The position numbers and the translations under genes were made by a program. DNA of 64,000 nt, taken from IMG/VR virus record IMGVR_UViG_2811995091_000109, positions 1-64,000 of that record. The stretch is one strand, 5' to 3'. The notes beneath the pieces were generated by a model. It had not been told where the DNA came from and searched no databases. It saw nothing but the letters and a program-made list of their open reading frames with translations. Shown one piece after another: positions 1 through 24,929 of this stretch. Source of the stretch: an uncultured virus (IMG/VR IMGVR_UViG_2811995091_000109) (taxonomy: Duplodnaviria > Heunggongvirae > Uroviricota > Caudoviricetes). The first letter of the stretch is position 1. Each line of letters starts with the position of its first letter.

Positions 1-439
1 CAGCGATACGAACCGTTGGGTTTGAGACAACCTCAAACTCAGGAACGGTCACGCGGTCACCAAAGACACGAGACTCAGGAGCAGCACCATTACTGGATAC
101 AACTACAGCCGCGACATCAATATCACGGTCGTACACCGGCAGAGCACCCTGAGGTAGAGGATCCACGACTAGGGCTTTGCGAGCAACTCCCTGATAATCG
201 AGGTTTCTACGGATTGGGTTAGCCATTGCCTGACCAAGAGCAATCTTGCCCTCTTGTGTCATCAAAGCCTGCTTAATCATCTCATCTCTCTGGCCGTCAT
301 TCAAGCCAGGCGCGGTGGCCTGAGCATTGCTTGATGGCTGAAGATCTTCGATAACCGAAGCATACTTAACTATCTGAGATAGCGCCTCCTGAACATTGGA
401 GGCATTAATTTCACCATGTGTGTTAAATAATGTAGACAT
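1..439 (-). CDS. Major capsid protein, N-terminal part (HK97-fold inferred; runs off the window edge)
   Basis: Not in the ORF track; translated by hand from ATG at 439 (RBS GGAGGG): MSTLFNTHGEINASNVQEALSQIVKYASVIEDLQ...ALGQAMANPIRRNLDYQGVARKALVVDPLPQGALPVYDRDIDVAAVVVSSNGAAPESRVFGDRVTVPEFEVVSNPTVRIA. Open to position 1, downstream of the protease/scaffold and decoration-like genes, and resembles large-phage MCP N-termini. Confidence 0.8.
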   Translation of the reverse strand, partial: MSTLFNTHGEINASNVQEALSQIVKYASVIEDLQPSSNAQATAPGLNDGQRDEMIKQALMTQEGKIALGQAMANPIRRNLDYQGVARKALVVDPLPQGALPVYDRDIDVAAVVVSSNGAAPESRVFGDRVTVPEFEVVSNPTVRIA

Positions 440-451
440 ATTCTTTCCCTC

Positions 452-1081
452 CTAGAGAAGTGCGTTACCCAAGAACCACACTGCGTGGTACTCTGTAGCT
501 GCGGCTAATCCGACCGCCGTGTTTGTAGTGGAGACAAGTGACGAATCTGTCACTTGTCCAACATAAATACCAAGCTGAATTCCACCGCCCACTGTGGTCA
601 AAAGACCTGCAGCGGTAGCTTCAACAGCCGCATTTACGGTTGACGTTGCAGCGCTAAGTGTATCGGCGGTATCATTAACTCCGTACAACCCAGCCTGCGC
701 CCAAACAGTCACCTTTCCAGAACCACGATTGGTCGCTGGTCCGATAACCACAGCGCCAGCAACATTCGTTGCCTGTCCTGCTGTCTGACCGATTAATGAT
801 CCAAAAAGTGTACCATAACCGCCAGATACTTCGCCACCGTCATCACTGAGTCCGCCTAAGCTTCCTGCTACACGCACCTTGCGTATGAAAGAAACACCTT
901 GTGGCACACCGGCCACAGGGGTGGGTCCAGAAGCAACATCTGCAGCATAACCTTCAGAACCGGGGCCGGTCATTGCGGCAAGCTCAACATATTCGCCGCC
1001 TTCAAGGGCTCCATTATCAGCGTCATCAAGGTCGAACTGCCCAAGAGGTCTTAAACCAGGATTTAATAGTTTTAAAGACAT
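452..1081 (-). CDS. Putative capsid decoration/cement protein
   Basis: 209 aa, Gly/Ala-rich, directly upstream of the MCP. Shares a GSG[KR]VT[VI]...G[LI]Y motif with 3907..4599. Confidence 0.5.
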   Translation of the reverse strand: MSLKLLNPGLRPLGQFDLDDADNGALEGGEYVELAAMTGPGSEGYAADVASGPTPVAGVPQGVSFIRKVRVAGSLGGLSDDGGEVSGGYGTLFGSLIGQTAGQATNVAGAVVIGPATNRGSGKVTVWAQAGLYGVNDTADTLSAATSTVNAAVEATAAGLLTTVGGGIQLGIYVGQVTDSSLVSTTNTAVGLAAATEYHAVWFLGNALL

Positions 1082-1112
1082 TTTTTATTCTCCTTATAAA
1101 AATTTTACATTA

Positions 1113-1137
1113 AATATATTCAACCATTGAATATATT
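1113..1137. promoter_or_regulatory. Perfect 11-bp inverted repeat upstream of the decoration/MCP genes
   Basis: AATATATTCAA-cca-TTGAATATATT in the intergenic gap. Confidence 0.4.
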
Positions 1138-1173
1138 GTCTAGGTTTATTCACTAACTTGAAATTTGATTATA

Positions 1174-3854: not shown

Positions 3855-3906
3855 TTGGATCTCCTAGAATATATACGTATATCATCACATTTTAAATAAT
3901 TAGTAG

Positions 3907-4599: not shown

Positions 4600-4624
4600 T
4601 CTTATCTCCCTAAGTAAAAATATT

Positions 4625-4655
4625 AAAAGGGAAGGAAAAAGCTTCCCTCCCTTTT
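4625..4655 (-). terminator. Rho-independent terminator-like hairpin
   Basis: AAAAGGGAAG...CTTCCCTCCCTTTT with A/T tracts on both sides, downstream of 4681..5265. Confidence 0.55.
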
Positions 4656-4680
4656 ATTTTACTATTAATAGTAAAAATTT

Positions 4681-5265
4681 TTAACTGCTGATTTTCCTAA
4701 TCGTGGCTTTAACCATGTCTGCAGCAAAGCCATCTCCACTATTTTGGAAGTCAGAAGCCATCTTATTAAGGACAGAAGCTATGTTTGATTTGCGACTTGC
4801 CTCCTTAGTAAGATCTTCTCTAATACTAAAGGCAGTAGCTTCTACAACATCTGCTGCAAATCCTTCATTTTTATTACGCAAACTGGCAGCAATCTTGCCT
4901 AGTCCGCTCATGATATAATGACCCAACGGATCATTAGAAGGTCTTGCTTTTGTCTTTCTTCTAGATTTACTAGTCTTCCTAGACCTATTAGTCTTCATAG
5001 AAGCTTCTTTTTTACTATCTTCATCATCATCTGCATAATCAGCATAATCGGCCATATCTTGCACTTGACTCTCCAAGTCAGCTACACTATCAGATTCTGC
5101 ATTATCAGATTCATCTTCAGCGTTAGAAACCAGCAAATCTTTTAGAACATCATCAGTTACGTTGCCTCCGCTGTCTTGAGCTGTTTTTACTATATTTTGA
5201 TTATTGCTCAAGAGTCTGTTAAACTCTTGAGCAATATTATCACCATTACGTCTAATGCTATACAT
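4681..5265 (-). CDS. Hypothetical head-associated protein with internal duplication
   Basis: Start moved to ATG 5265 (RBS AGGAG). Two copies of L-x-K-[IM]-A...GFAAD[VM]V[EK]AT. Confidence 0.6.
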   Translation of the reverse strand: MYSIRRNGDNIAQEFNRLLSNNQNIVKTAQDSGGNVTDDVLKDLLVSNAEDESDNAESDSVADLESQVQDMADYADYADDDEDSKKEASMKTNRSRKTSKSRRKTKARPSNDPLGHYIMSGLGKIAASLRNKNEGFAADVVEATAFSIREDLTKEASRKSNIASVLNKMASDFQNSGDGFAADMVKATIRKISS

Positions 5266-5276
5266 TATATTTTCTC

Positions 5277-8200
5277 CTATTCCCACATGGATGCTAAGGC
5301 ACCAGCCGACATCAATGTTGTGTTAGAGACAGGTTGAGAACCAGAATCGGACTCTACCCCAATGTTTAAACCGCCAAGGTCTGAAGCAATCTTAGTGTTT
5401 CTGACCGTGCGAGCATTACCAATGCTTCTCTTAAATGCTTCGAAAGCATTATTATCAAAAGACATTATCTCATCAACTTGGTTATCTAATGCAGTTTTGG
5501 TAGTAGACAAAAGTCCTTTTCTTTGCATTTCCAATCCAACATCATAGGCTCTGCGTAACTTAACTCTATAGCCCTCTCTTTCCTCATCTGCCTTCTTTGT
5601 TGCAATCTGAGTATTTAAAGATTCTTTTACAGCATTTGTCGCACGAGCTCTTGTAGACACGGGCTCTGCAGAAGCAGTTTTCACCGTTGCAGACTGCTTT
5701 TCAGTCTTTCTGTTAGAGGCACTTTGAGCAACAGATCTTTCAGCATTTCTCAACATTGCTGCTCTACTATTTGCGCGATCTTTTAGAATACGATCCTCTG
5801 CTTGCTTCAGAATTGAGTTGCGGCGGCCTCGTCTAAGGTTCATAGCTTCTGTTACCAGGCTATCAACAGCATCATCATCAGCTTCGTTTGCAACGCCCTG
5901 ATCATTAGCTTCGCTCTCATCAAAGGCTGCATCATCAGCTGCATCATCTTCGACATAATCAACAACCTCATTTGTTTCGCCTCCTGACTGAGCAGTTTTT
6001 GCAAGACCTACGAGAGCCTTTGTTTCGCCTGTGATTTGATCTGCATCTCTCAAGGCAGAACCGGCAAGCTTAACAAACTCTCTTCGCTGGGAATGAGAAA
6101 GCTTAGACATATTATCATATGTTTCTGCAACCATAGATAGTTCATCAGCAGAATCATCTAACTTACGATAAGCCCTCTTTAGGTTGGTGATTATGTGATT
6201 AGAGAGAGCTTCAAGCCCGCCCTCTTCCGCTCCAACTTCCTCTCCTGGTCCGCCCTTATCCTTTCCGGTAAAGACGTTTACATCAACATCTGCAAGTCTA
6301 TCGTCTTGCAATTGAGCCACTAGGTCTCTGACTTCATCAAGAAGCTGTTCAATTTCTGCAAGTCTATTATCAATAGCCTCTCCAGGCTCCTCCTCTGCGC
6401 CTTCCTCACCTTCTGCGCCTTCCTCATCCAGCGGTGGCAATCCACCTTCTTCATCTAATGGTGGCAGCTCAGGCAATCCACCTTCTGCGCCCGCCGGAGG
6501 TCCAGCTTCTGCACCCGCTGGAGCATCCAGAGGAGGAAGAGGAGGGAGTGCGTCAGGGGCTTCCTGTGCAGACTTTAAAAGATTAGAAACGTTATTTAAT
6601 CCAAAAGATCTAATCTGATCGCAAACTTCTTTGCCATATTCCTTACTCTTGAGCCAGTTCCAATTATTTCTTAGCTCTGGGCCAAAAATATCTCCAGCAG
6701 TAGCCGCTATAACTCGCTTGCTTCCTGAAAAAACTTCAAAAAGACTTCTGTTATGATCAACAGAACCATTTGAGTTACGACGAACGCTAAAGCGAGTACT
6801 TAAAGCTGGCCCGCTATAGGCCTGCTTTCTTAGGCCTCTGTTTGCATAAGAAGCTCTATGTAAATTCTCTTTTGCTTGAGAATCTCCAGGGAACATTCCT
6901 GACGTTCCGCCCATGTTTCCGGTTTGAAGCATGTGCTTATCTTGATTGTCTCGAACGTTTTTGTAATCTTCGTTCTTATATGTATTTGGCTCAACGCCAT
7001 CGGCTCCGCCCTGCATATAGGCCAATCTCTGCAACCTTCTTTCTTCAAGCTTGGCTCTGCTAAGCTTTTCCTTAGACTCTTTGTCTCCAGGGAACATGCC
7101 GTTATCGCCGCCCATGCCCTTGTCCTGTTGCATTTGCTTATCTTTATTAAAATCAAAGGTTTCACCCTTGTACGTATTTGGCTCTGCGCCATCAGATCCA
7201 CCTTGCATATATGCTACACGACGGCGAAGCTCTGCTCTTTTTCTTAATCTTGACTCATTCATGATATCCTCCACTATTGAATTTATTGAAAAGTCGTCCA
7301 CATAATCGCTATCATTGCCATTATTAGCTAATTTAATATTACGATTAGTGTTGTCCGTAGCAAGCTCCGTCAAAACTTCGCCGCCTGACGGAGATGGAAA
7401 GAGATCATCTTCCGGTGGAAAACCTTCTCTTTGTTCGGTTTGTCCACCACCTGCTAACCCCATCCTAGTACTTCCGCTCAACTCAGGTACATCTCCTGGC
7501 AGTCTAGAACCTTCTACATTTTCACCTGTAGTAAATTCTGTTCTAGGAGCTGGACCAACACCTGGTTTAGTTGTTACATTTAACTTGTTAATCAAACTGT
7601 TTATTACACTTTTAACATCATCGGTTACGCTTGGGTCTCCCAAAACATTTGTAGCCTCTGATACTGCAGACAAAGTTTCTGCTATATTTCTATCTCTTTC
7701 TGAATTATCGGTAAAGCCGCCAGCAGCTTTGAATAATCCATTGTTTTTTAAAAATCCTCTTACGATATTTCTTCTCTCATCTACCGAGCAACCGCCCTCT
7801 CCGCAGGCGGTTTTCATAATTCCTTCTAAGTGCTCTGCCTGTTTTAGGTTTAAGCCTCCAAGCATTCGATCTACATTGTCAACACCATAATTTATAAATT
7901 CATTCGAATATTCCTGAAGAGACGCTATACACTTTAAGAGTATAGCTCCTGGCTCAGCAGGCTGAACAACAAGGCTGTATTCTATTGGCTTTAATCCAAC
8001 ATTAACCTCCCCATGTGCTGTCTTGTTCATTATATGATTACAATATTCGTCTTGCGTTGTAGCTCGATTTCCACACTCAGAACAGATGGAGGTCTCAACT
8101 GCGGTACCCATTGACCCGTATCTTACAAGACCTGTCTCGACTTTTCTTGCCAACTCTGGATAATTAACCTTATCTAAAGCGCATAGCCCTACAATTTGTT

Positions 8201-8642
8201 TGAACTTCTCATCATAATGTGTATCTAGGATTATTCCTCTGATTCCATCAACAGAGCTTGATTCATGGTCTCTGCACAGAGGCAGTCCAATCCAGCTGTT
8301 TGCCGCCTTCTTTAGTTCCGATTCTGGAAATATATCTTTGTTATTATTTCTATGTGGCTGAATGTTTCCATTCCACTTCCAGTTTTCATCAAAAAAGCCC
8401 CAAGCGTTTTCTCCGCCTGAGACTTTTTTAAGGCCGCCTTTTTCGTCAAGCAATGCTGACTCTGCCGCCTTTAGGAAGACTATTGAAAAATAAAGAAAGT
8501 CATCAGACTTTGGTGCTATATTTTTTATGCTATTTGCTAGTTTTGTAAAACGTCGAATTAATTTTGGATTTGCAAGTATCTCTTGTTGATCATGAGTATC
8601 AACAATGTTATTTTCCGGAGAAAAGCATACTTTCTTGAACAT
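5277..8642 (-). CDS. Prohead protease fused to scaffolding protein
   Basis: N-terminal maturation-protease pattern: DH, GSMG, EYSLVVQPAEPGA, with a C-x2-C-x10-C-x-H insertion. C-terminal acidic/Pro-rich and coiled-coil region. Lies between portal and MCP. Confidence 0.8.
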   Translation of the reverse strand: MFKKVCFSPENNIVDTHDQQEILANPKLIRRFTKLANSIKNIAPKSDDFLYFSIVFLKAAESALLDEKGGLKKVSGGENAWGFFDENWKWNGNIQPHRNNNKDIFPESELKKAANSWIGLPLCRDHESSSVDGIRGIILDTHYDEKFKQIVGLCALDKVNYPELARKVETGLVRYGSMGTAVETSICSECGNRATTQDEYCNHIMNKTAHGEVNVGLKPIEYSLVVQPAEPGAILLKCIASLQEYSNEFINYGVDNVDRMLGGLNLKQAEHLEGIMKTACGEGGCSVDERRNIVRGFLKNNGLFKAAGGFTDNSERDRNIAETLSAVSEATNVLGDPSVTDDVKSVINSLINKLNVTTKPGVGPAPRTEFTTGENVEGSRLPGDVPELSGSTRMGLAGGGQTEQREGFPPEDDLFPSPSGGEVLTELATDNTNRNIKLANNGNDSDYVDDFSINSIVEDIMNESRLRKRAELRRRVAYMQGGSDGAEPNTYKGETFDFNKDKQMQQDKGMGGDNGMFPGDKESKEKLSRAKLEERRLQRLAYMQGGADGVEPNTYKNEDYKNVRDNQDKHMLQTGNMGGTSGMFPGDSQAKENLHRASYANRGLRKQAYSGPALSTRFSVRRNSNGSVDHNRSLFEVFSGSKRVIAATAGDIFGPELRNNWNWLKSKEYGKEVCDQIRSFGLNNVSNLLKSAQEAPDALPPLPPLDAPAGAEAGPPAGAEGGLPELPPLDEEGGLPPLDEEGAEGEEGAEEEPGEAIDNRLAEIEQLLDEVRDLVAQLQDDRLADVDVNVFTGKDKGGPGEEVGAEEGGLEALSNHIITNLKRAYRKLDDSADELSMVAETYDNMSKLSHSQRREFVKLAGSALRDADQITGETKALVGLAKTAQSGGETNEVVDYVEDDAADDAAFDESEANDQGVANEADDDAVDSLVTEAMNLRRGRRNSILKQAEDRILKDRANSRAAMLRNAERSVAQSASNRKTEKQSATVKTASAEPVSTRARATNAVKESLNTQIATKKADEEREGYRVKLRRAYDVGLEMQRKGLLSTTKTALDNQVDEIMSFDNNAFEAFKRSIGNARTVRNTKIASDLGGLNIGVESDSGSQPVSNTTLMSAGALASMWE
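6850..7225 (-). repeat. Tandem duplication of about 62 aa in the scaffold region
   Basis: Two copies of AYMQGG[SA]DG[AV]EPNTYK...DK[QH]M.Q...MGG..GMFPGD...KE.L.RA. Confidence 0.85.
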
Positions 8643-8926: not shown

Positions 8927-11197
8927 TTACTCCGATAAAATTAATATACCCAAAATGTCTGAATTTATATACTCTTTAGCTCTAGATAGAGCCATCTTTA
9001 AGTCGTCAATTACATTTTCTGAGTTTTGAGTTTTTTGCGTACATTGATTTATAAAATCATCGGTATCCAATATGTTTATTAAATCAAAAACTTCTTTAAC
9101 TGCTTCGGAAGAAGCCTTTGAGGAGTCTGCTATAATGTTGATTATTTCAGATGTTGTAGAAATATCTTTTATATCATTTAATATTTTAATTCCATTTTTA
9201 ATATTTATCAACATTCTTTTTGTAATTCTAGAATTTCTTTTTACAGACTGATTGTATTTTCCTTTGCTATTTGAAATAACATCTTTATTTCCTTGAACCT
9301 TTTCATATGCAGCAAGATTTTTATTAAAGTTTTCAATCAAAGTATCACACATATCTTTTGATCTATCGAAGTATCTTAAGGCATGCTTTGCCTTGCTCTT
9401 TATATCATCTGGAACAGGAATGCCTGCGGACTTGACTAAGGAGTCGCTATATAGCTCAATATTGTTTTCAGAATATTTTTCTTTTAATGCTTTAAATATA
9501 TCTTTTGAACCGTAATCTTCTGGCACTCGAACAAGATCGCTTGATATGGATGTTTTTAATCCTTTTTTGATTTCAATCTCTTTTTCAAGAAAATTTTCTA
9601 AAATTATTCTATCATTATTTTTTCTTGATACAAAAACTATGCGCTTTTTTGAGTCCAATGCAGTTTCACATATCTTCTCCAAAGCTTTGTCCCTCTCTTT
9701 GTTATCAATATCTGAATACCTCATAGATTCATTTGGAATCACAGAATAAGTTGAATTAATTTTTTCATAAAATCCTTTAGAAACAATATCAGACAAGTCT
9801 ACTTCTATAAAACTATTCTTATCTGCAGAAAAAACTTCATTGTGTAATCCTATAAAAATTCTTTTATCATCATCAGGTGCCGCATGTTTGTATAGTTTTA
9901 TTTTAAAATTATTATTTAAAAATAAATTATCAATATCAAAAGCAACTATTTTATTTTCACTTTCATAATTTAATGAAGCATTTTTAATTATTTGTGTAAC
10001 AGAATGTTGATTTTCATTATTATTTATAACATAAATTTTATTATTTAATATATTATAAAATCCAGATTTTAATACACTAGATCTTTTAAATATATATTTA
10101 TCAACTCCTGAATTTTTAATTGTGTTTGCTATTTTCAATAAATCATCATCAAAGTCTGCCCCTTGTTCTATATAAATAGAGTTTGACTCTTTGATTCCTA
10201 ATACATCAGATAGTCCGCCTGATATTTCCAAAACATATTTAACACCATGGCACCCGAAAACCTCTAAGGATCCAGGCTGAATATTTTTAGAAATCTTTTT
10301 GATTTTAAAATTTTCATTTATAAATATAATATCAATAGGATAGCTGACGCTTCCCATGTGATAAAAAACATCAGTAGGCCTATTATATGGAAATAACAAA
10401 CCAGATTCTTTGTCAAGACGAGAATAAGTCTGAAGTCCATCTACCTTTTCTCTAAATGATTTTGCTATATCACATCTAAAAACAACAGAAGCATCAACAT
10501 TATCTTCTTTATTATAACATCTAACTATAGCCGTTTTGTTTGAATCATTTTTTGAAACTAAATATTTTCCAACTTTATTTATATGTTTGTCTATAATTTT
10601 AAACCCTATTTTTTCTATATTAGAAGAAAAATCAGATGAATTTTTTAAAATTATCAACCCATTGCTTATGGGTCTTAAATGATTATAAATGTTATTTAAA
10701 ATAATCTCCAAAGAATCTCCGGCCGTTTGTGAGCTTGCTATGCAAAATCCATCAAATTTTCTTCTAAATGTATGAAACATTGGATCTCCATACTCTTGAT
10801 GAAATTTGTGTATATTTACTTTATTTGAAGCATCTTTTGACAAATTAATTAAATTATGTCCTTCTTTTAATATTATTGATGCAGATTTATCTGTTTGCTT
10901 TCCAACGCTTAAGATCGTAGATTCTTTTTTTATTAAATTTAAAAATCTTTTAGACATACTTTCTAAAGCAAAATATTCTTCTGAATCTATCTGATCCTGA
11001 AAAAGATCATCTACTGGAAACATCATTCCTTCCGAATATCCAGGCGGATCCTCCATAGTAAGCTCTTCTAATTCTTCTGAATCAGACGTTGTGCTTTTTC
11101 CCTCTCCAACAAAAGTGTCATAGTGGTTGGAGTCCATAGCTATGTCGTCTTCCATTAGATTTAAATCTGAATATGGTGGCCAAGATAATTTTTTCAC
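8927..11197 (-). CDS. Multidomain protein: degenerate SAM-methyltransferase-like + DUF192 + HAD-like + coiled coil
   Basis: DUF192-type segment GLQ...GLLFPY...YHMGSVSYPIDIIFI...YVLEISGG is clear. HAD-like KIVAFDID / IVFVSR / YSDS and MTase-like ILSVG...KFD...HLRP..NGLII...GFKII are weaker. Confidence 0.6.
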   Translation of the reverse strand: MKKLSWPPYSDLNLMEDDIAMDSNHYDTFVGEGKSTTSDSEELEELTMEDPPGYSEGMMFPVDDLFQDQIDSEEYFALESMSKRFLNLIKKESTILSVGKQTDKSASIILKEGHNLINLSKDASNKVNIHKFHQEYGDPMFHTFRRKFDGFCIASSQTAGDSLEIILNNIYNHLRPISNGLIILKNSSDFSSNIEKIGFKIIDKHINKVGKYLVSKNDSNKTAIVRCYNKEDNVDASVVFRCDIAKSFREKVDGLQTYSRLDKESGLLFPYNRPTDVFYHMGSVSYPIDIIFINENFKIKKISKNIQPGSLEVFGCHGVKYVLEISGGLSDVLGIKESNSIYIEQGADFDDDLLKIANTIKNSGVDKYIFKRSSVLKSGFYNILNNKIYVINNNENQHSVTQIIKNASLNYESENKIVAFDIDNLFLNNNFKIKLYKHAAPDDDKRIFIGLHNEVFSADKNSFIEVDLSDIVSKGFYEKINSTYSVIPNESMRYSDIDNKERDKALEKICETALDSKKRIVFVSRKNNDRIILENFLEKEIEIKKGLKTSISSDLVRVPEDYGSKDIFKALKEKYSENNIELYSDSLVKSAGIPVPDDIKSKAKHALRYFDRSKDMCDTLIENFNKNLAAYEKVQGNKDVISNSKGKYNQSVKRNSRITKRMLINIKNGIKILNDIKDISTTSEIINIIADSSKASSEAVKEVFDLINILDTDDFINQCTQKTQNSENVIDDLKMALSRAKEYINSDILGILILSE

Positions 11198-11241: not shown

Positions 11242-11541
11242 TCAAAGCCTTATCATAAGCTCGCTTAAAACTACATTTATAAAATGTGGATCCTTTCCAT
11301 TTAATATATTTTTAATCAAACTAAGACTAACGCCTATTGCCGCACCACCTGGGGCACGCTTATTTGCAATCTCCATTACATTAAAATCCCGTAGTTTGTT
11401 TGAGACATTTTGATAAGACCTAGGGCGAGCCTCCACAGACATTCTGGATATCATAATTTTTATTACATTATGTAACTGTTCAGCTACATATATGGCATTC
11501 TGCTCAAGCAGTTGTGCATTTTTATCTAGATTCTTTGACAT
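11242..11541 (-). CDS. Hypothetical protein (head block)
   Basis: 99-aa ORF overlapping the upstream gene, with RBS. Confidence 0.6.
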   Translation of the reverse strand: MSKNLDKNAQLLEQNAIYVAEQLHNVIKIMISRMSVEARPRSYQNVSNKLRDFNVMEIANKRAPGGAAIGVSLSLIKNILNGKDPHFINVVLSELMIRL

Positions 11542-15855: not shown

Positions 15856-16461
15856 TTATCCGGATGCGTGAGACATATAATCTGCTATATCATCGTCATA
15901 TGATGATGGCATATCTGCTTCAGACATATATTCTACTTTTTCCGGACTACTTTTGTGCTGTTTAAGTATCTTTTCAACTAATTTTCTAAATTTACTATGA
16001 TCTATTTTGCTTTCGACTTTATCAAATCCAAGCTTTGGATGCTCTCTGCAGTGCGTCATAACAGCTCCATAGCCTAAGTCTGCGCGATCTGATGCGAATG
16101 CTTGAATATATTCCAGAATGGTTCTAAGAACTTCTAATACTTCTCCACCATCCTCTTTCTTTGATTCGCATGTACCACACTTGCCTTTGCCAGCCTTTTC
16201 GTCGCAACATGTATCGCCACAACCAGCAGATTTTATGTTTTGATTATCTTTTGTATTTATATTCTTAATAAGATCAAAGCCAGCTCTTTCTTTTAGATCT
16301 GCCATTTTTTCTTCAATTGTAGAAAAGTCATTACGCTTTTTCATGACAGAACGAAGATTGCTGAGATAATCAGCATTCTTTTCTAAATTATTAGCAAAGT
16401 CATTAATCCAATCAACTGTTGTATTATATTCTTCGCTTAAAATTTGTCTTGTTACTTTCAT
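15856..16461 (-). CDS. Hypothetical protein with Cys cluster
   Basis: 201 aa; TIEEKMADLKERAG and C...CC...CxxC. Confidence 0.6.
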   Translation of the reverse strand: MKVTRQILSEEYNTTVDWINDFANNLEKNADYLSNLRSVMKKRNDFSTIEEKMADLKERAGFDLIKNINTKDNQNIKSAGCGDTCCDEKAGKGKCGTCESKKEDGGEVLEVLRTILEYIQAFASDRADLGYGAVMTHCREHPKLGFDKVESKIDHSKFRKLVEKILKQHKSSPEKVEYMSEADMPSSYDDDIADYMSHASG

Positions 16462-16470: not shown

Positions 16471-17001
16471 TTATTCTTCATCTTCTTGGTCGAATAGATT
16501 TAAATCTCCCAGAATATCTTTGCCTGTCTCGAAGACTTCTTTCACCTTCTCTTCCAAGTTGGGAAGCCTTGGCCCAGTGCCAACGTCAAGCTTTCCTTCT
16601 ATTGATTCGACCAATACCTCAACAGATTTCTTAACCCCGGCTAACACCTCGTCGGACAATCCGGTTTTATCGGCGCATATCATAAATTCTTTAAGTAAAT
16701 TCGTTGGAATCTCGTCTATAACCATGGGATTGGGGAATGCACATCTCAAAAGGTCGTTTATCATAAGATCGTCTACTCCTGCGGTGGATAAAATCCCTTT
16801 TAAGGCCGCCAACACATCGTCCCAGGACAAATCATTTACATTTGGCATATCTCCCGGCAGAATCGAACTGCCGCCATCTTGTGCTAACTTGTTTAATATT
16901 CTGTCAACAAAGTCGGCCTCTTTTGTTTTCTTTATTCCGTCCAAATGATTTGCCAATTTGACAAGATCTTTTTTAATATCTTCTAATCTAATATTATCCA
17001 T
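16471..17001 (-). CDS. Hypothetical protein with N-terminal LANHLD...EAD..D module
   Basis: 176 aa; LVKLANHLDGIKKTKEADFVDRILNKLAQ; RBS AGGAG. Confidence 0.65.
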   Translation of the reverse strand: MDNIRLEDIKKDLVKLANHLDGIKKTKEADFVDRILNKLAQDGGSSILPGDMPNVNDLSWDDVLAALKGILSTAGVDDLMINDLLRCAFPNPMVIDEIPTNLLKEFMICADKTGLSDEVLAGVKKSVEVLVESIEGKLDVGTGPRLPNLEEKVKEVFETGKDILGDLNLFDQEDEE

Positions 17002-17019: not shown

Positions 17020-18066
17020 TTATGCAAAATAATTTCTTAAAAAGTCAACGCCAGCCTTACCGTCAGACTTTTCTGAGTCAGCATTATTTGGCGAATATGT
17101 TCCACGATCCTTGAAGATATGAAATCCACTATCCATACAAAGCTGCATTATTGCAAGCTCTTCTCTGTCATCAATAGAATATTTATTGGATAGGAAATCA
17201 TAAACATCTTCTATAGAATGACCGCCTGAAATATGAGCATTTATCATTATTCCAGAAATTGCACGCTCGAAAGGAGAGACGGCTATAACTATATTATTGG
17301 GAGTAGAAGCTTCTTTCGTAAGCTCATCATAGTCTACCTCTCTGCCGGCTATGCTTGTCCATTTAGGAATGCCAAGAGAATCTAAAGATGCCTCCTTTGA
17401 ATGCTCTTCTTTGAATTTCTTCTTAAGCTTACCAAGATGGTCTTTTAAAACCAAGATATCTTTCATTATATTTACTCGAACATCTTCAAGCGCCTGTATA
17501 TCTAAAAGGTTATCACTATCTTCTCGGATAGCTCCTGAGATCTGTGTATTTAGTTTGTCAAGAAATGTTATAGCTTTTTCGCAACCAAGCATACTTCTTC
17601 CGTCATGCTGAGGAATATTGGCAGGGTATTGTCCTCCTACATACTCTACAAACTTACTTAAATCTCCATCATTTGCATAATCTGTCTCTTTGTCATTCGC
17701 GTCATCATCTAACTCTTCTGAGCTAATATCAGAACCAGGCAAAAGAACTGATGCAGGCTCGTCTCCATGTTCTTTTACAAGCTTGGTCAATTGTTTGTCC
17801 AAACCCTCTAGGTCTTCTCCCATATCTCCGAAGCTTCCCTCTCCCTCTGTAAAGGTGCTTAAAACGTCTTCTACAGTTGCTTCGCCGTCTTCCATCATGC
17901 CGTCCTCATCTTGGCCGACTGTTAGGCCAGCTCCAAAGATTTCTTCTGGCAACATGCCCTCAAAGCCATCTTCCGTATAGTTAACATGATCATCTTCTAA
18001 ATAAGAAACTGCTTCACTATAATTAGATTCTTTAAAAATTGTTGTTGTTTGTGAATTATTAGCCAT
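17020..18066 (-). CDS. Hypothetical acidic head-block protein
   Basis: 348-aa ORF with RBS AGGAG. Confidence 0.65.
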   Translation of the reverse strand: MANNSQTTTIFKESNYSEAVSYLEDDHVNYTEDGFEGMLPEEIFGAGLTVGQDEDGMMEDGEATVEDVLSTFTEGEGSFGDMGEDLEGLDKQLTKLVKEHGDEPASVLLPGSDISSEELDDDANDKETDYANDGDLSKFVEYVGGQYPANIPQHDGRSMLGCEKAITFLDKLNTQISGAIREDSDNLLDIQALEDVRVNIMKDILVLKDHLGKLKKKFKEEHSKEASLDSLGIPKWTSIAGREVDYDELTKEASTPNNIVIAVSPFERAISGIMINAHISGGHSIEDVYDFLSNKYSIDDREELAIMQLCMDSGFHIFKDRGTYSPNNADSEKSDGKAGVDFLRNYFA

Positions 18067-18074
18067 TTTGTCTC

Positions 18075-18509: not shown

Positions 18510-18550
18510 TATTGGTATATCCTATATAAATGAAAGAAATATTAGTAAGT

Positions 18551-19369
18551 TTAAAAATCTAATGTTTTTAACTTATACTCAGATAAATTAATTACATCAT
18601 CTAAATACTTATTAACGAGCCTTCTTTTAATAAGTTCTTCTTTAAAAACGCCAGACATAGGCACTGTTGGTAACAAATTCATTTCTTCTAAATAATACAT
18701 GGTTACATCAGGGTCATTATTTATAGCTTCTCCTATAATTGATGTCATGAAAGCTTCTTTTAAAATCCATTTGTTTTCTCCGGTAAATTTGTCTCTATTG
18801 TTTTTTACATAATCAATAATTTCACTATCTATCTTAAACCCAAAACGAGCAGCGAAACTAATCGCTCTATAAATACGTCTGAAATCATTATTTAAAGTTA
18901 TTCGGGCAGGAACCGGGGTTCTTAATATTTTATTATCTAAATCTTCTTTTCCCCTGTTTGTAAAGTCAAGAATTTCATCATCATAAAATCGCTTATGTAA
19001 AGTATTTATTGTAAAATCTCTACTATAAACTTCAAATAATTTTTCATCTTTAATATTTAATTCTTTTGTTATATAATCAACAGCTTCTTCGGATATAAAA
19101 TTACTCGAAAAATCAAGAATCATATTTTTTATATATATAGAAACGTGACCATCTTTTTGAAAAAATTTAAATCTTTCTCTAAGTTCATCAGCAGTAGTTA
19201 TAGCCAATCTCGTTATATCAGAATCATTTGTGGTTATATCTATATCTCTAGGGTCTTCATTTGAATTAAGATATAAGCTCCTAGGAATGCCTCCAACTAT
19301 GTATGGCTCAACTATATAATTATCTTTACATATCTCTAATATTTTTGAATATATATTTTCAAGATTCAT
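18551..19369 (-). CDS. Class II tRNA nucleotidyltransferase / poly(A) polymerase family protein (head+neck only, divergent motifs)
   Basis: YIVGGIPR...DID, SRDFTIN, GKEDLDNKILRT, DFRRIYRAISFAARFGFKID. Start moved to ATG 19369 (RBS AAGAGG). Confidence 0.85.
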   Translation of the reverse strand: MNLENIYSKILEICKDNYIVEPYIVGGIPRSLYLNSNEDPRDIDITTNDSDITRLAITTADELRERFKFFQKDGHVSIYIKNMILDFSSNFISEEAVDYITKELNIKDEKLFEVYSRDFTINTLHKRFYDDEILDFTNRGKEDLDNKILRTPVPARITLNNDFRRIYRAISFAARFGFKIDSEIIDYVKNNRDKFTGENKWILKEAFMTSIIGEAINNDPDVTMYYLEEMNLLPTVPMSGVFKEELIKRRLVNKYLDDVINLSEYKLKTLDF

Positions 19370-19393
19370 TTGAGCCTCTTTGAACAAAGTTAT

Positions 19394-20986
19394 TTACTCT
19401 GGAAGTTCTGGTGCGACTAGTTCTTCTTCTCCAACTTCTTGCTCAGGCGCTGGGACGACCTCTTCGGCTGGCTCTACCTCTTCTGTAGCTCCTGGGATAC
19501 CTGTTTGAGCCTTTACCAGGGTCTTCGCATTAGCAAGCTGTCCCATCATTTTTGTAACTCTGGTAAGGGCATATGAGTATGCATCAATCAATTTGCTTTG
19601 AGACTCTGCAAGCTCTGGAAACATAGAGGCTATGCCTAATTTATCAAGCATTATATCAAACTCAGCCAATTGTCTAATGATTCTTCTGTCTGCAAGCATG
19701 CCAGCTACTTCATCTAGCTTCGTAGCTGCATCATCAAGATTTATATCTCCAGCAAGCTCTTCATATTCTCCTGGCCTTGCTCCTGGAATTGGTTTAATAC
19801 TCTCAAGTGCAGCAGGCTCCACAGTATCAGACTTTGGAATTCCGCTAGTAGGGCTGGGCTCTTCCACCTCTGGCTCTGCTACTTCTTCCAAGGGCGCTTC
19901 AGCCTGCATAGCTCCCTCCTCTACTCCGGCAATAGGGGCTGCTGGAGCAACATTCTCTTCTCTTTCAAGCCTTGGATCAGGCCCTTGGTTCAAAGGCGGT
20001 TGTTCGGGAACCTCTTGAGCTATCTTTTTTAGAATTTCTGCGCCTTCTGTGTGGCCCAGCTTGGTAAATTTATTTGCAGCCTTATAGGTTACATCAGTTA
20101 TGGTATTTGCCAACTTTAATGTATGAACCTGCAGGCTAAGATTCATAAGGTTTTCTGCAAGATTTCTATATGTATCTGAATCCATATACCTATCTGTTCT
20201 TAAAAGCTTGTCTATACGTCTAATTGCAGTATGAAGCTTTCCTTTCCAATTACTAAAGACATCTTTATCCTCAACAGCTTTATTAGCATTTGATGATACA
20301 TGATCAAAAAGATGCTGATCAAGACTGTCTCCAGGCATATTATATCCCGTGTTTTCTCCTAGGTATGCGCTACCTCCTCCGGAATAATAAGGACTATTAC
20401 CTTGTCCCATATCGCTAATGTAAACAGCTTTCTTTTTCATATCTTCATCCTCTTTTGAGCTATATTTTAAGTGTTCTCCATCACTATAATATTTAAACCA
20501 TTTTTTAAACTTTTCATCTTCATCTTCTTCTATATTTAAAAAATTACTATAATAATCTAAAGCATTTTGTTTTGTCATCTCTTTGTTTGCAACAGAATCA
20601 TAAATTAAATGAACAACCTTTAACCAATTATTAACATTAAACTCATTTTCAATATCATCTCTGTATCCAAATGTATTGGGATAAGCAACTTTTTTAATAT
20701 TATTTTTTTGAGCTTTCATTCTAACTATATTATAATAAGCATCATTTATGTTGTTTATCTTAAGGTTTAATAATTCTTTATTTTCTTCGAAAGAAAGTTT
20801 TGCCCCGATGCTTTTTGCTGCTGATTTTAAAATAAAATATTTTTTAAATTTTTCATCACTATCAATGCCCACGCCTGATAAATCAATAGATTTTTTCATA
20901 AGCTGATCGAACGTGTGCGTCTTTGCGCTCACTGGCAAGCGGGACAATTTCTTTGTAAAATAATTATTTATCTTATCTTTGCTCAT
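19394..20986 (-). CDS. Hypothetical head-associated protein
   Basis: 530 aa; many K-x-A motifs, Pro/Glu-rich linker, helical C-terminal domain RRIIRQLAEFDIMLDKLG. Confidence 0.65.
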   Translation of the reverse strand: MSKDKINNYFTKKLSRLPVSAKTHTFDQLMKKSIDLSGVGIDSDEKFKKYFILKSAAKSIGAKLSFEENKELLNLKINNINDAYYNIVRMKAQKNNIKKVAYPNTFGYRDDIENEFNVNNWLKVVHLIYDSVANKEMTKQNALDYYSNFLNIEEDEDEKFKKWFKYYSDGEHLKYSSKEDEDMKKKAVYISDMGQGNSPYYSGGGSAYLGENTGYNMPGDSLDQHLFDHVSSNANKAVEDKDVFSNWKGKLHTAIRRIDKLLRTDRYMDSDTYRNLAENLMNLSLQVHTLKLANTITDVTYKAANKFTKLGHTEGAEILKKIAQEVPEQPPLNQGPDPRLEREENVAPAAPIAGVEEGAMQAEAPLEEVAEPEVEEPSPTSGIPKSDTVEPAALESIKPIPGARPGEYEELAGDINLDDAATKLDEVAGMLADRRIIRQLAEFDIMLDKLGIASMFPELAESQSKLIDAYSYALTRVTKMMGQLANAKTLVKAQTGIPGATEEVEPAEEVVPAPEQEVGEEELVAPELPE

Positions 20987-21934: not shown

Positions 21935-21949
21935 ATTTACCTCTAAAAT

Positions 21950-21983
21950 AAAAAGTCCTAGCCTTATATTACTAAGCTAGGAC
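21950..21983 (-). terminator. Rho-independent terminator
   Basis: GTCCTAGC...GCTAGGAC stem followed by a U-tract on the minus strand. Confidence 0.7.
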
Positions 21984-22028
21984 ATTAATATTTAATTTAG
22001 TTAAGTTTAGACTAAGACAAGCAAAAAA

Positions 22029-22868
22029 CTATTTTCCCTTTACTAATCGGTCTAAATAATCAGCCTCTTTAATAAGACCAATTTTATCTAAATGATTAGA
22101 TAAAGTCATCAAGTCATGTGCAAAGTCTTGATTGAGAGGATCAGGATCAAGCTCCCACTCATCAGCGCCTGAATTGCACCACCAAGAATTGTCCTCCTTC
22201 TGAATAAGGTCTGCTCCGGGAGGACACCCTCCTGGAGGCTCGTCAGAAGCTCCGGGAGATGCTTCTAACTCTGGCTCTGTCCATATAATTCCATGTTCAT
22301 CTACGCTGCCGACATCCATGCTTTCTATATTAACATCTTCTGTATCAGCCCTTTTTAATAAAGCATCTAAATAATTTGCCTCTTTTATAAGGCCTGTTTT
22401 GTCTAAATGATTTGCCAAATGCATCATGCTAGATTGCAACGCAGCACCTCCGCCAGGAAATGTTCTGCCATCTTCTGCTTTGAAGCCATCATTATAATCA
22501 TAAACCTTGTTAGTATAGGGATCTTGAAATACCCCATCAGAAACCCTCATGGCCTGGACTCCTACTCGATCCGGCGAATAACGCGTAGAAAGGTGAGGAG
22601 CCGGAAATTCAGTTGGAACATAAGAATCTTCATGATCTGGAGTTATTCCGTATAGACTATTTGTATCTCTGCCTAAAAGCTCTCCACCCCTAGTTGCTAA
22701 GTATCTATCACGAGTTGCGTATTCTGCCACATTTGATTGAAAATGTTGAAAAGCACCGTGTTGATCTCCGAGGGCTTGCTTTTGAAGTCCTTCGATCTTA
22801 CTTGTTCTGCCTTGCTGTCTTTCAGAGTTTCCCAAAAAACCTTTTATATTTTCAAATCTATTGCTCAT
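22029..22868 (-). CDS. Head-associated protein with two L[AS]NHLDK.GLIKEA.YLD modules
   Basis: 279 aa; HLSTRYSPDRVG domain plus a duplicated helical module. Confidence 0.65.
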   Translation of the reverse strand: MSNRFENIKGFLGNSERQQGRTSKIEGLQKQALGDQHGAFQHFQSNVAEYATRDRYLATRGGELLGRDTNSLYGITPDHEDSYVPTEFPAPHLSTRYSPDRVGVQAMRVSDGVFQDPYTNKVYDYNDGFKAEDGRTFPGGGAALQSSMMHLANHLDKTGLIKEANYLDALLKRADTEDVNIESMDVGSVDEHGIIWTEPELEASPGASDEPPGGCPPGADLIQKEDNSWWCNSGADEWELDPDPLNQDFAHDLMTLSNHLDKIGLIKEADYLDRLVKGK

Positions 22869-22878
22869 ATTAAATTCC

Positions 22879-24438
22879 TTATGATATTGTAACTCTTGAG
22901 GATGATATCATTGCTCCAAGGTTATCAAGGCTATTCTTTTGAGCATTTCTATGCATCGGAAAGGGTCTGCCTTTTTCATCAAAATCTACCTTGCTAACAG
23001 GAAGGCCTAATTTTGGACAATAAGGCTGTACAGAAGATGGAACCCTGATTAGATCTCCATTCTCTAGAGCTTTCTTTATCATAGCCTCTCTCTCTGTTCC
23101 GCTTGAAGAATGCTTTAAAAGCTTTGTAAACTTATCGAGTGCAGCTAGATATTGTGTTCCATCAAATTTTTCATTAATGGTGTTTAAAGCGTCTTCTGCT
23201 TGTCTGTAGTCCGTTCTAGATACACCGTCTATCATTCTGTCAATAAGCTGGCCATATGAAAGCCTTGACATTTCAACAACTTCTCTTGAAACCTTGTTTA
23301 GATCGTCAATATGATCGGCAGCCTTCAAAATAACTCTAAGACCAGCCTCATTCAGTCTATAGCTAGTGCCATTGACCAAGAAATTATTAGGAATAACGGG
23401 CCGGCCATTTGGCATGTCAACAGGAATATTGACCTCAACTCTTCCGCGAGGAGTTGGGATATCTGCAGCAAAAGTGAGAATCTTATTTGTCGATCCGCAC
23501 ACACGCACCTGCGGATTTGGAACTCCAAGGCCGGCAAGCTCTGCTACCACGACACTAGACGCAACCTTTATCTGCTCTCTGTTAAAAGATGCCATAGAGG
23601 CTACTAGATCGTTCTCTAAATCTGCAAATTTTTCCAAACTAGCAGGAACAACTGGAGTGTCAACCTTGAAGTCTCTAATGCTCCTCTGTTCTGCAAACTT
23701 ACTTGCTGCCGTTTTCTTTATAAAATTATCCTTGTCCTTTATAAAGACATAAACATTTTCTTTGTTTAACTTAACAAGGTTGTCGCCTTGAATAAAATGT
23801 TTTGGAAGGGATGGAATTCCGTTTGTCACCTGGACTGGAATTGGTATATTTACTTGTGTAAAACTAGATGTATCAACGGAAGCACTACAAAGAATAAAAT
23901 GATCATTTGATCGAATAGCCTTTACCTCTTGTGGAACACATCCTACTGAAATCAATTGTAATCTTGCAAACTTTTCAGCCTTTTTAACAGAATCATTAGA
24001 AAGAGCAGAGAAAGAAGCCTGCTTGTCTAAAGAGAAAACTCCGGCCAATTCTTTGGAGAGTTCATTTTCTTCAAACAAAGGAGAGATCTTTTCTTCGTAA
24101 GGAATTCTGGCACTTGCCGCGCCTTTCTCTTCCAATTTTAAAATTGCATGCTTATCAAGAAGTAAGTCTCCAAGTTCTTTTCTGAAATTAGACCTTCCTC
24201 CGGATAGCCCATAAAGGTGATCATAAATTTCAACCATTTCTTTTTGGGTAATATACTGTTGCTTACTAACCTTGCTCGCGACCACATCGCGAGCATGACA
24301 GATTAATATATCTCTAGAGTTGTTGGTGGCAGCATTATTCAGACGATTAAAAACATATTTGGTTGTAAATGTTTTTCCATTCTCTATTTTGTCTAGAGCC
24401 TTTTTTGCTTGAGCTACAATATGTTTTATTTCATTCAT
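22879..24438 (-). CDS. Hypothetical (probably virion) protein with internal duplication
   Basis: 519 aa; repeated VNIP[IV]..(T/P)NG.P.[LI]P..F motif; many K-x-A motifs. Confidence 0.65.
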   Translation of the reverse strand: MNEIKHIVAQAKKALDKIENGKTFTTKYVFNRLNNAATNNSRDILICHARDVVASKVSKQQYITQKEMVEIYDHLYGLSGGRSNFRKELGDLLLDKHAILKLEEKGAASARIPYEEKISPLFEENELSKELAGVFSLDKQASFSALSNDSVKKAEKFARLQLISVGCVPQEVKAIRSNDHFILCSASVDTSSFTQVNIPIPVQVTNGIPSLPKHFIQGDNLVKLNKENVYVFIKDKDNFIKKTAASKFAEQRSIRDFKVDTPVVPASLEKFADLENDLVASMASFNREQIKVASSVVVAELAGLGVPNPQVRVCGSTNKILTFAADIPTPRGRVEVNIPVDMPNGRPVIPNNFLVNGTSYRLNEAGLRVILKAADHIDDLNKVSREVVEMSRLSYGQLIDRMIDGVSRTDYRQAEDALNTINEKFDGTQYLAALDKFTKLLKHSSSGTEREAMIKKALENGDLIRVPSSVQPYCPKLGLPVSKVDFDEKGRPFPMHRNAQKNSLDNLGAMISSSRVTIS

Positions 24439-24452
24439 TATTCATTCCTCAT

Positions 24453-24929
24453 CTAATTAGATTTTAATATTTCTGGAAAAAGATTCTTGATAACCTCTGC
24501 TTTTGCAGATGGCTGGCTAGCAACAACCTTTTTGATAAACTCTTTATCTGAACTAACAACTTCTAACAATGCTGATTTAAACGTAAAAATATCATCTCCA
24601 GAAAATCCATATTCGTCTGATGAAAATCCACAAATAGGAACATTTTTATAAGAAAGAGTTACATGATTATAATCATAATTACTAGAAGCGCTCCAATCTC
24701 CACCTTCTTTGGTTTGATATTTTGGATCTGAACTTCTAATTAAAAAGTTTGAGCCATCAATTTCTTCAACTTTCCATAGATCATCATATTGATCGCCCAT
24801 AACTTTATACATATCAAAGGCAACCTTCTTGATCTTCAAGTTTTTAGTTAAAGGAATTTTGTCTTTAACAGAAACATCAGATGATTGGTTTTTAAAAAAA
24901 TTAATCAGAACATCATCTAATTCAGACAT
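24453..24929 (-). CDS. Hypothetical protein, first gene of the head block
   Basis: ATG 24929 preferred on RBS spacing (AAGGAG); IKKVAFD...DDLWKV. Confidence 0.6.
   Translation of the reverse strand: MSELDDVLINFFKNQSSDVSVKDKIPLTKNLKIKKVAFDMYKVMGDQYDDLWKVEEIDGSNFLIRSSDPKYQTKEGGDWSASSNYDYNHVTLSYKNVPICGFSSDEYGFSGDDIFTFKSALLEVVSSDKEFIKKVVASQPSAKAEVIKNLFPEILKSN

Follow-up and report, generated by a model that had tools for sequence, protein, structure and literature searches.

The window analysed here comprises the first 64,000 nucleotides of the IMG/VR virus record IMGVR_UViG_2811995091_000109, which spans 76,075 bases in full, and comes from a jumbo phage whose closest cultured relative is Bacillus phage G (Donellivirus). 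Within its first 25 kb it carries a gene for a prohead protease fused in frame to a scaffold part (5277..8642) and a block of genes whose products repeat the pentapeptide motif [LI]-x-K-x-A. The long open reading frames (ORFs) of the window are all on the minus strand, to which every feature given below belongs. From the 97 ORFs listed by mechanical calling, 56 non-overlapping minus-strand ORFs were used; plus-strand ORFs were left out, every one of them being nested in a longer minus-strand ORF. Genes were identified by PHROG and Pfam scans of the window ORFs. On the minus strand, the genes for the large terminase (TerL; 14081..15853), the portal (12354..14078), the protease (5277..8642) and the major capsid protein (MCP; 2..439) follow each other in this order, and the protease gene thus sits in the head module, between the portal and MCP genes. 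The 24 minus-strand ORFs of positions 1-24,935 (8045 amino acids, aa) are referred to as the head block and were set against the remaining 32 ORFs (12,646 aa). From about 25 kb on, the window is a replication and recombination block with genes for primase, RecA, GroEL, RuvC, DnaE, SbcCD, ThyX and an M16 peptidase. ORFs are named below by their lower coordinate.

The 1121-aa product of 5277..8642 is laid out as a propeptide helix, an assemblin-fold protease domain and a long helical and disordered scaffold part. It matches phrog_18299, annotated as head maturation protease, at an E-value of 4e-13 (4.1e-13). A full-length AlphaFold2 (AF2) model built on 68 diverse sequences gives residues 45-240 (7923..8510) a predicted local distance difference test score (pLDDT) above 90; an earlier AF2 model of aa 1-300, based on 21 close sequences, had a mean pLDDT of 48.9 and was unusable. 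All of Foldseek ranks 1-10 are herpesvirus proteases or T4 gp21 (probability 0.80-0.99, E 3.9e-3 to 0.09), the top herpesvirus matches being 1o6e, 1vzv, 2wpo, 1at3, 2pbk and 4v07; the weakness of the E-values reflects the 1121-aa length of the query. Alignment with VIA-align against T4 gp21 (5jbl_A) covers residues 39..227 of the model, with a Z-score of 10.3, a root-mean-square deviation (rmsd) of 3.2, 128/165 residues aligned and 19% identity. Against herpesvirus proteases (pseudorabies, varicella-zoster) the Z-scores are 9.2-10.7, with 1vzv at 10.7 and 4v08_A at 9.7 (rmsd 2.8, 120 residues aligned).

Two conserved residues of this domain are putatively catalytic, namely His126 in a D-H motif (8265-8267) and Ser177 in a G-S-M-G motif (8112-8114). 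Both are invariant in the 68 sequences of the model alignment; in a set of 130 sequences, Ser177 is invariant and His126 is present in at least 90%. By tblastn, the protease matches genes of Rhodococcus phage E3, BcepSaruman and Gordonia phages whose annotation is prohead or capsid maturation protease, and a search of PDB sequences with the protease by phmmer and hmmsearch gave no relevant match. Judged by the AF2 model, the 45-240 domain is an assemblin-fold protease, apparently outside the curated sequence families. The PHROG match and the fold matches bear out the initial annotation, which had called 5277..8642 a prohead protease. Inserted in the protease domain is an invariant Cys cluster (C187, C190 and C201, with H or C at 204; 8040-8084). 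This Cys-rich insert of aa 187-201 looks like a zinc ribbon; we know of no zinc ribbon in T4 gp21 or in herpesvirus proteases.

The scaffold part extends over about 840 residues after the protease domain and is modelled by AF2 as long helices and disordered linkers. What the initial annotation had listed as scaffold is no separate gene but the C-terminal 840 residues of the protease ORF. A small alpha/beta domain with a pLDDT of about 90 lies mid-scaffold at aa 610-690 (6573-6815). VIA-align matches to the helical part at 748-889 were to generic helical bundles and were set aside as uninformative.

The motif had first been proposed as hydrophobic-x-K-x-[A/S], and all 27 of the 27 pentapeptides quoted in its support are present in the ORFs to which they had been assigned. 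We counted it in a relaxed form, [LIFMV]-x-K-x-[AS], and in a strict form, [LI]-x-K-x-A. The relaxed motif occurs 77 times in the head block against a shuffle mean of 23.8 (sd 4.7), a count that none of 2000 shuffles reached; in the other 32 ORFs it occurs 40 times against a shuffle mean of 37.9 (sd 6.1, p 0.39). The excess anticipated by the initial annotation is therefore found, and in the head block only. Its remark that most proteins carry the motif holds for the relaxed form, present in 20 of the 24 head-block ORFs, yet discriminates weakly, as 18 of the 32 other ORFs carry it too. The strict motif shows a sharper contrast, with 45 sites against 6.0 expected in the head block, about sevenfold (Poisson P ~2.5e-24), and 10 against 8.5 in the replication and tail ORFs. 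Shuffles that preserve local composition, in blocks of 10 or 20 residues, yielded 7.2 ± 2.7 and 6.4 ± 2.3 strict sites, respectively, and none of 1000 reached 45.

An unbiased scan of all gapped residue pairs at spacings of 1-6 recovers the same elements. In the head block, Lys followed by Ala two residues on (K+2A) ranks first, with 91 pairs against 41.5 expected (z 7.7), and L+2K and I+2K reach z 4.7 and z 3.6; all three fall outside the top 25 pairs in the other 32 ORFs. Varying one position at a time defines the motif further (given as observed/expected in the head block). At the middle position of [LI]x?xA, Lys stands out (45/6.0) from Glu (11/6.0), Asp (10/6.3), Arg (7/3.8) and Gln (7/2.4). 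At the last position, Ala (45/6.0) is far preferred over Ser (17/7.0), with all other residues at or below about twice expectation, and this narrows the [A/S] first proposed. The hydrophobic position likewise holds in part: Leu (30/3.6) and Ile (15/2.4) carry it and Phe, Met and also Thr are mildly raised, but Val is not included (V-x-K-x-A, 1/2.4). The residue between Lys and Ala is free to vary and is often bulky or charged. After the Ala, Ser (14), Asp (10), Asn (9), Ala (8) and Gln (8) are the most common residues among 91 sites, and Gly is also frequent. A strict site lies within the first 60 residues in 11 of the 24 head-block ORFs, compared with 1 of the 32 others.

The nucleotide pattern AAR-NNN-GCN occurs 3.76 times per kb in the coding frame and about 0.8 times per kb in the other frames, with all synonymous Lys and Ala codons in use. 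Because the excess is confined to the coding frame and uses all Lys and Ala codons, the motif is a signal at the protein level, and a DNA-level motif was rejected on the same grounds. Composition and helix periodicity were rejected too, since the excess is reproduced neither by shuffling whole proteins or blocks nor by swapping residues or altering the spacing; nor is there a strict-motif excess in the Lys-rich, coiled-coil SbcC-like protein or in this phage's 2210-aa protein. Outside the window, the record's final two ORFs (72700..75045 and 74954..75862) carry 3 strict sites each (3/0.8 and 3/0.19), and substrates may for that reason not be confined to the 1-25 kb block.

T4 provides a positive control. 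The same pair scan applied to T4 gp67, gp68, gp21 and gp22 (702 aa) places I+2E (15/5.8) and L+2E (16/6.9) as the top two pairs. As the scan thereby recovers the experimentally known I/L-x-E code of gp21, a prohead-protease code does leave this statistical footprint. The codes of T4 and phiKZ type are themselves flat in the head block, with [LI]xE at 107/89.2 and [SAG]xE at 131/124.9, and neither is among the top 25 gapped pairs. This fits the earlier suggestion that the protease has a specificity unlike the x-x-E of T4 and phiKZ.

Within the fusion protein the relaxed motif occurs at 14 sites against 2.5 expected, and seven sites are kept in 19-24 of 24 close orthologs. The first, FTKLA at aa 32-36 (8535..8549), is part of the helix immediately preceding the protease domain and is a candidate N-terminal propeptide site; it is kept in 24/24 close orthologs and 114/126 distant homologues, and its counterpart in the alignment with phage G gp19 is LVKTA at aa 41. 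On the other side of the domain, IMKTA at aa 275-279 (7806..7820) ends helix 266-278, is followed by coil and is a candidate release site, kept in 21/24 orthologs; the equivalent C-terminal tail of phage G gp19 has LEKVA and LLKIA. LFKAA at aa 303-307 (7722..7736) stands at a helix end before a disordered stretch, and its Leu is kept in 24/24 and its Lys in 21/24 orthologs, the full motif in only 5/24. LRKRA at aa 466-470 (7233..7247), kept in 22/24 orthologs, is in the middle of helix 449-480. LLKSA-Q at aa 688-693 (6567..6581) marks the end of the folded 610-690 domain, where a Pro-rich disordered linker of about 55 residues (693-749) begins; the site is kept in 22/24 close orthologs and 91/113 distant homologues at a flank identity of 0.30, and the Gln after its Ala is present in 86 of 95 sequences, in agreement with the K-x-A-Q examples of the initial annotation. 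FVKLA at aa 856 and LAKTA-Q at aa 880 (together 5991..6077) lie within and at the end of helix 850-886, respectively, with disorder following at 889-924. The former is kept in 20/24 close orthologs; the column of the latter holds the motif in 85/108 distant homologues, at a flank identity of 0.14, and in only 1/24 close orthologs. ILKQA at aa 944-948 (5799..5813) is within a helix and kept in 19/24 orthologs. Motif sites thus bracket the protease domain, and in the AF2 model sites 303, 688 and 880 end helices that precede disordered linkers.

A scan of viral contigs with the portal found 313 relatives, and 80 of these loci were kept (portal identity 52-98%, contigs up to 332 kb). Every one of the 33 related loci of at least 15 kb has an excess of the strict motif, ranging from 2.5- to 7-fold (13/5.3 to 41/6.1), and in these same 33 loci [LI]xExA is near expectation. 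For ortholog alignments the best match per locus was taken, exact duplicates and matches with a query coverage below one half were dropped, and proteins with fewer than 8 loci were left out, which gave 9-27 orthologs per protein. Of 40 strict sites in these alignments, 16 are retained by 80% or more of the orthologs, and mean retention is 0.59; among seven control patterns examined alongside, six have a retention of 0.35-0.56, with 0-20% of their sites reaching that threshold. At many sites the three motif residues stay in place while the x positions and the flanks drift. Conservation in homologues, which the initial annotation had made a test of the motif, holds to this degree for 16 of the 40 strict sites and is poor at the other 24. 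In several proteins (22029, 11242, 24453, 19394 and 5277) conservation is lower before the first conserved site than after it, a pattern not seen in 4681, 15856, 17020 and the portal.

A profile search with the protease region found 1884 representatives (at 50% identity) at E ≤ 1e-3 and 200 at E ≤ 1e-30, and the best 150 representatives are mostly fusions of 1000-1600 aa. In the tails beyond residue 300 of 130 diverse long fusion representatives, [LI]xKxA occurs 504 times against 143 expected and the Arg form 171 times against 54, with a median of 6 strict sites per protein against 1.6 expected. Three columns of the fusion protein stand out in the 130-sequence alignment, those of sites 32, 688 and 880, kept in 79-90% of sequences at flank identities of 0.14-0.34.

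These figures bear on whether the motif signals anything at all. It might be a structural habit of helical proteins rich in Lys and Ala, serving capping or packing and passed on by inheritance without a signalling role. Leu at position i and Ala at i+4 do share one face of a helix, many sites fall in predicted helices, 24 of the 40 strict sites are poorly conserved, and some head-block proteins share modules. Against this, shuffles that preserve local composition fail to reproduce the excess, and Glu, Arg, Gln or Asp instead of Lys, like altered spacings, show no comparable enrichment. The SbcC-like coiled coil and the 2210-aa protein have no strict excess, and motif positions are kept while x positions and flanks drift, even at a flank identity of 0.14. 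We consider a purely structural origin quite improbable.

Sites kept in at least 80% of orthologs occur in eleven of the 24 head-block ORFs: 4681, 5277, 8927, 11242, 11522, 15856, 17020, 19394, 22029, 22879 and 24453. The gene directly downstream of the protease gene (4681..5286) encodes a 201-aa protein with 5 relaxed sites against 0.8 expected. Its sites IVKTA-Q (5179-5193), LTKEA (4798-4812) and LNKMA (4756-4770, aa 173) are kept in 14/18, 17/18 and 18/18 orthologs, with x-position identities of 0.17-0.53. Between the portal and protease genes, 8927..11197 encodes a 756-aa protein with a DUF192 domain (PF02643, E 2e-19, aa 241-341) and 11 relaxed sites against 3.4 expected, among them IIKNA (9977-9991) and LVKSA (9425-9439), which are kept in 19/25 and 22/25 orthologs at flank identities of 0.22 and 0.44. 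The 99-aa protein of 11242..11541 has LDKNA at aa 5 (11515-11529) in 25/25 orthologs with an x-position identity of 0.12, and the 187-aa protein of 11522..12085 has IKKIA at aa 109 (11747-11761), also in 25/25. LEKNA at aa 26 (16372-16386) of the 201-aa protein of 15856..16461 is kept in 23/25 orthologs, and LTKEA at aa 249 (17308-17322) of the 348-aa protein of 17020..18066 in 26/27, at a flank identity of 0.44.

Further along, the 530-aa protein of 19394..20986, for which PHROG and Pfam scans gave no family and the ESM Atlas no usable match, has IKKVA (20684-20698), MKKKA (20426-20440) and LKKIA-Q (20018-20032) at aa 97, 183 and 319, kept in 26/26, 24/26 and 25/26 orthologs. In the 279-aa protein of 22029..22868, LQKQA at aa 28 (22773-22787) is kept in 18/18 orthologs with an x-position identity of 0.06, and LIKEA at aa 160 (22377-22391) in 17/18. 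Upstream of aa 28, identity is 0.14 with 44% gaps, compared with 0.63 over the next 40 aa. The 519-aa protein of 22879..24438 carries 8 relaxed sites against 2.1 expected, of which LLKHS (23107-23121) is kept in 18/18 and MIKKA (23068-23082) in 16/18 orthologs and the other 6 in 2-8 of 18. The 160-aa protein of 24453..24935 has IKKVA (24819-24833) and TFKSA (24570-24584), each in 9/9 orthologs.

The portal (phrog_16240, E 2e-52), the MCP, 1174, 16471 and 3420 are possible but weak further candidates. ISKKA (14034-14048) and LIKNA (13887-13901), in an N-terminal extension of the portal, are kept in 17/27 and 13/27 orthologs, the Lys of LIKNA in 27/27, and the phage G portal has MAKQA at aa 16. 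Of the MCP (phrog_2522, E 5e-25) only the N-terminal 146 aa are available, the gene being truncated by the record end. From aa 46 on it is 58% identical to phage G gp27, and its first ~42 aa form an extension absent from phage G. Within that extension, IVKYA-S at aa 23-27 (359-373) is kept in 5/5 relatives, with one K to R; this conservation is uninformative, because the relatives' MCPs are 82-99% identical. The 176-aa protein of 16471..17001, in which LVKLA (16951-16965) and LNKLA-Q (16882-16896) enclose the N-terminal module described below and a Gly-rich linker follows, has only 2 orthologs in the loci, and the site of ORF 3420 is weakly kept, in 6/12 orthologs. No conserved site was found in the ortholog alignments of TerL, the tRNA nucleotidyltransferase (18551..19387), 18075, 20983 and 21248. 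The initial annotation had taken 1-25 kb as a pure head block and had counted 15 or more processed proteins. The first view does not stand, as non-head genes are included and the five ORFs just named lack conserved sites; the second is overstated and best read as an upper estimate, with the eleven ORFs listed above as the well-supported candidates.

Some of the sites belong to a larger repeated unit, a helix-turn-helix-like module of about 30 residues with the pattern L-x-K-L-A-N-x-L-D-x-x-G ... E-A-D-x-L-D-x-L-L-K-x-A and the motif at one or both ends. Four clear copies were found: one in 16471 (16882-16965), two in 22029 (aa 146-179 and 251-277) and one in the ORF at 74954..75862, outside the window. 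A weak fifth lies in 11522 (11747-11830; HMM E 3.6e-4), with IKKIA at its end. The module stands at the N-terminus of 16471 and, for one copy, at the C-terminus of 22029, being N-terminal twice overall. It may be a capsid-targeting or scaffold-binding element, perhaps ending in a cut site. With only four clear copies and one weak copy, the module was rejected as the whole explanation of the motif.

Its recurrence speaks for the idea that the motif as such is a binding or targeting signal, acting in part as the end of the module and loading proteins into the prohead uncut by docking on scaffold, portal or capsid shell. The C-terminus of 4681 is a similar helix-Gly-helix that looks scaffold-like, and both it and the module resemble the C-terminal end by which the P22 scaffolding protein binds coat; in the AF2 model, moreover, a number of conserved sites lie inside helices. 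Yet the modules cover at most ~10 of the 45 strict sites, sites are found on both sides of the protease domain itself and where helices give way to disorder, and the T4 control shows that a cleavage code yields just such a statistic. A signal for binding alone is in our view unlikely. Targeting and cutting are in any case not exclusive, since the targeting peptides of T4 end in the cleavage motif.

A second peptidase is encoded in the window, and the motif might be cut by this enzyme in place of the assemblin-like protease. The product of 62655..63866 is an M16 zinc peptidase, with matches above cut-offs to PF00675 (E 3e-28, 99 bits) and PF05193 (E 9e-28, 97.7 bits) and an intact zinc motif H-x-x-E-H (H-M-L-E-H) in its N-terminal part. 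It is 28% identical to phage G gp2, whose gene adjoins the terminase gene, and is present in 5/5 relatives searched, two of them with records that are 94% and 99% complete. Mitochondrial processing peptidases cut with a basic residue two positions upstream, and on this model an M16 enzyme would cut, for example, between x and Ala, with the Lys two residues upstream. The gene is, however, about 54 kb from the head genes, amid nucleotide-metabolism genes, and the motif brackets the assemblin-like protease domain, as self-processing predicts. We know of no phage whose head is matured by an M16 peptidase, and give this alternative little credence; co-occurrence does not discriminate, because both enzymes are always present. 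In two relatives the matching M16 frame contains one in-frame TGA, and on the record the M16 gene has ORF 63923..65056 as its neighbour.

That the motif is a real and conserved protein-level signal of the head block is an observation. Beyond it, we infer that the motif is cut at all, that the assemblin-fold protease is what cuts it, and that the cut falls after the Ala rather than the Lys. Taken together, [L/I]-x-K-x-A is reasonably likely to be the recognition and putative cleavage signal of the fused assemblin-fold protease, probably cut after Ala. A cut after Ala is favoured because the following residue is mostly small or polar and the x between Lys and Ala is free, and because the i, i+2, i+4 spacing fits P5-P3-P1 on the same face of an extended substrate. 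It is favoured also by the herpesvirus assemblin sites, which end in Ala in the accessible part of one report (PMC4498786). The alternative register, a cut after Lys (L-x-K, as in the T4 register), is possible.

Several observations count against assigning the motif to this protease as its cleavage code. On the side of the enzyme, no Pfam family was found for the protease at E ≤ 10 (21 members searched), hhalign gave T4 gp21 a probability of 3% and aligned only a 24-residue N-x-N...F/Y-P...L-x-K-A stretch, and an M16 peptidase, apparently active by its sequence, is encoded as well, in 5/5 relatives. On the side of the motif, more than half of the strict sites (24/40) are poorly conserved, and the control [LI]xRxA is retained better than the motif itself (4/5 sites, mean 0.79), all five of its sites being in conserved domain cores. 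The family-wide counts overstate the support, because homologous proteins are not independent samples. The residue following Ala is not tightly restricted, and the conserved sites 466, 856 and 944 are mid-helix in the model, where their accessibility as substrate is not obvious. The repeated module supplies part of the signal, at most ~10 of the 45 strict sites, and could be a binding element. Lastly, the excess in phage G is modest (17/5.1) and partly shared by the next 37 genes ([LI]xKxA 8/3.6; K+2A 23/20.8).

If the favoured interpretation is correct, the fused enzyme, a putative His126/Ser177 serine protease, would act inside the prohead. It would release itself by cuts at aa 32-36 and at either 275-279 or 303-307, and break up its own scaffold part at helix-to-linker junctions, at aa 688, ~856/880 and 944. 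Some ten other proteins, whose genes surround those for portal and terminase, would be trimmed or cut, and the N-termini of the portal and the capsid protein may be trimmed too.

To our knowledge, the phage assemblin-fold proteases characterised so far all have Glu specificity, and in giant phages the codes worked out comprise only those of T4, phiKZ and SPN3US, in which the cut follows Glu. A literature search, which did not cover the phage G capsid structure paper, found no published K-x-A or Lys-Ala prohead-protease motif. In T4, gp21 cuts at (L/I)-x-E in gp22, gp67, gp68, gp23, gp24 and internal proteins. The present system shares with it the fold (Z 10.3), the location of the gene (between those for portal and capsid protein), a key residue with a hydrophobic residue at the second position upstream, the spread of the motif across many head proteins and its detection by the same statistic. 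It differs in its key residues, Lys and Ala instead of Glu ([LI]xE 107/89.2), in the five-residue length of the motif, in the fusion of the protease to ~840 residues of scaffold and in having no detectable sequence-family membership. As far as the accessible portions of two reports go, phiKZ gp175 and SPN3US gp245 exemplify a single protease that acts on a large number of head and internal proteins, chiefly removing propeptides from their N-termini, and that also cuts its own C-terminus (PMC5694885, PMC10052503). These too are jumbo phages; their motifs, (S/A/G)-x-E for gp175 and A-x-E for gp245, differ from the one described here, where [SAG]xE is flat (131/124.9), and so does their lineage, as the capsid, portal and protease of the window are phage G-like.

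In its architecture the fusion protein recalls herpesvirus pUL26, with an assemblin fold and an N-terminal protease fused in frame to scaffold. Herpesvirus sites have a hydrophobic residue at P3 and, unlike the motif here, no Lys requirement. The candidate site IMKTA at 275-279, after the protease domain and kept in 21/24 orthologs, would be the counterpart of the pUL26 release site. Sites that end in Ala, followed by Ser or Thr, are a further likeness, the P1 Ala being a predicted one in our case; herpesviruses have between two and a few sites, confined to one or two proteins, in contrast to the dozens here. The accessible part of one report describes pUL26 as a protease-scaffold polyprotein whose R and M sites in pseudorabies virus end in Ala, as YLQA-T and VQA-S (PMC4498786).

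Phage G shares the capsid protein (58% identity), the protease (gp19, 35%), the portal (gp14, 32%) and the M16 peptidase (gp2, 28%), and aa 1026-1080 of the fusion protein are 38% identical to its gp21 (55 aa). The same signal, in weaker form, is present in gp1-gp28 (K+2A 61/36.1, z 4.2; [LI]xKxA 17/5.1); gp9, gp13, gp14 and gp20 carry sites N-terminally, and gp19 does so in its C-tail. In contrast to the fusion described here, the protease gp19 and the scaffold-like gp21 are encoded by separate genes, and the MCP has no N-terminal extension of ~42 residues. In the accessible part of a multi-omics paper on phage G, the protease is mentioned and no cleavage sites are given (PMC12484599). The tie to phage G is new here, as are the T4 positive control, the full-length fusion model with its helix-to-linker sites and the M16 alternative.

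Other features of the window lie apart from the head genes. The phage has its own GroEL-type chaperonin (27771-29423), Hsp20 (61024-61542) and bacterial-type RecA (26611-27813), besides DnaE. The 2210-aa ORF at 35858-42490, inside the replication block, has no PHROG or Pfam match and carries 6 relaxed motif sites against 6.4 expected. The PHROG and Pfam scans also found two giant PKD-bearing fibre-like proteins, of 1529 and 1016 aa, encoded next to each other at 52129-56718 and 56732-59782 and with nearly identical N-termini. The first has PKD/Ig-like repeats, relaxed motif sites number 1 and 0, respectively, and the two are probably tail fibres. There are 28 ambiguous bases (N) in 42498..46506, over 43585-46506 and mostly at single positions, a scatter that points to a polymorphic or low-quality stretch of the metagenome assembly.

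In large phages, the prohead protease determines what proteins the capsid comes to contain and the form they take there. More tentatively, the very large phage-G-like jumbo clade may mature its heads by a herpesvirus-style protease-scaffold polyprotein with P1-Ala plus Lys and Leu/Ile subsites, not Glu. A second, unrelated code of Lys and Ala would, if true, show how specificity evolved in a fold common to phages and herpesviruses. The motif would then be a readable address label by which sequence alone predicts the proteins that are loaded into the head and trimmed, and the candidate head-internal or ejected cargo proteome of thousands of uncultured giant phages would be exposed. The clade is seen almost entirely in metagenomes, and cultured Bacillus phage G, with the same protease lineage, makes the code directly testable.

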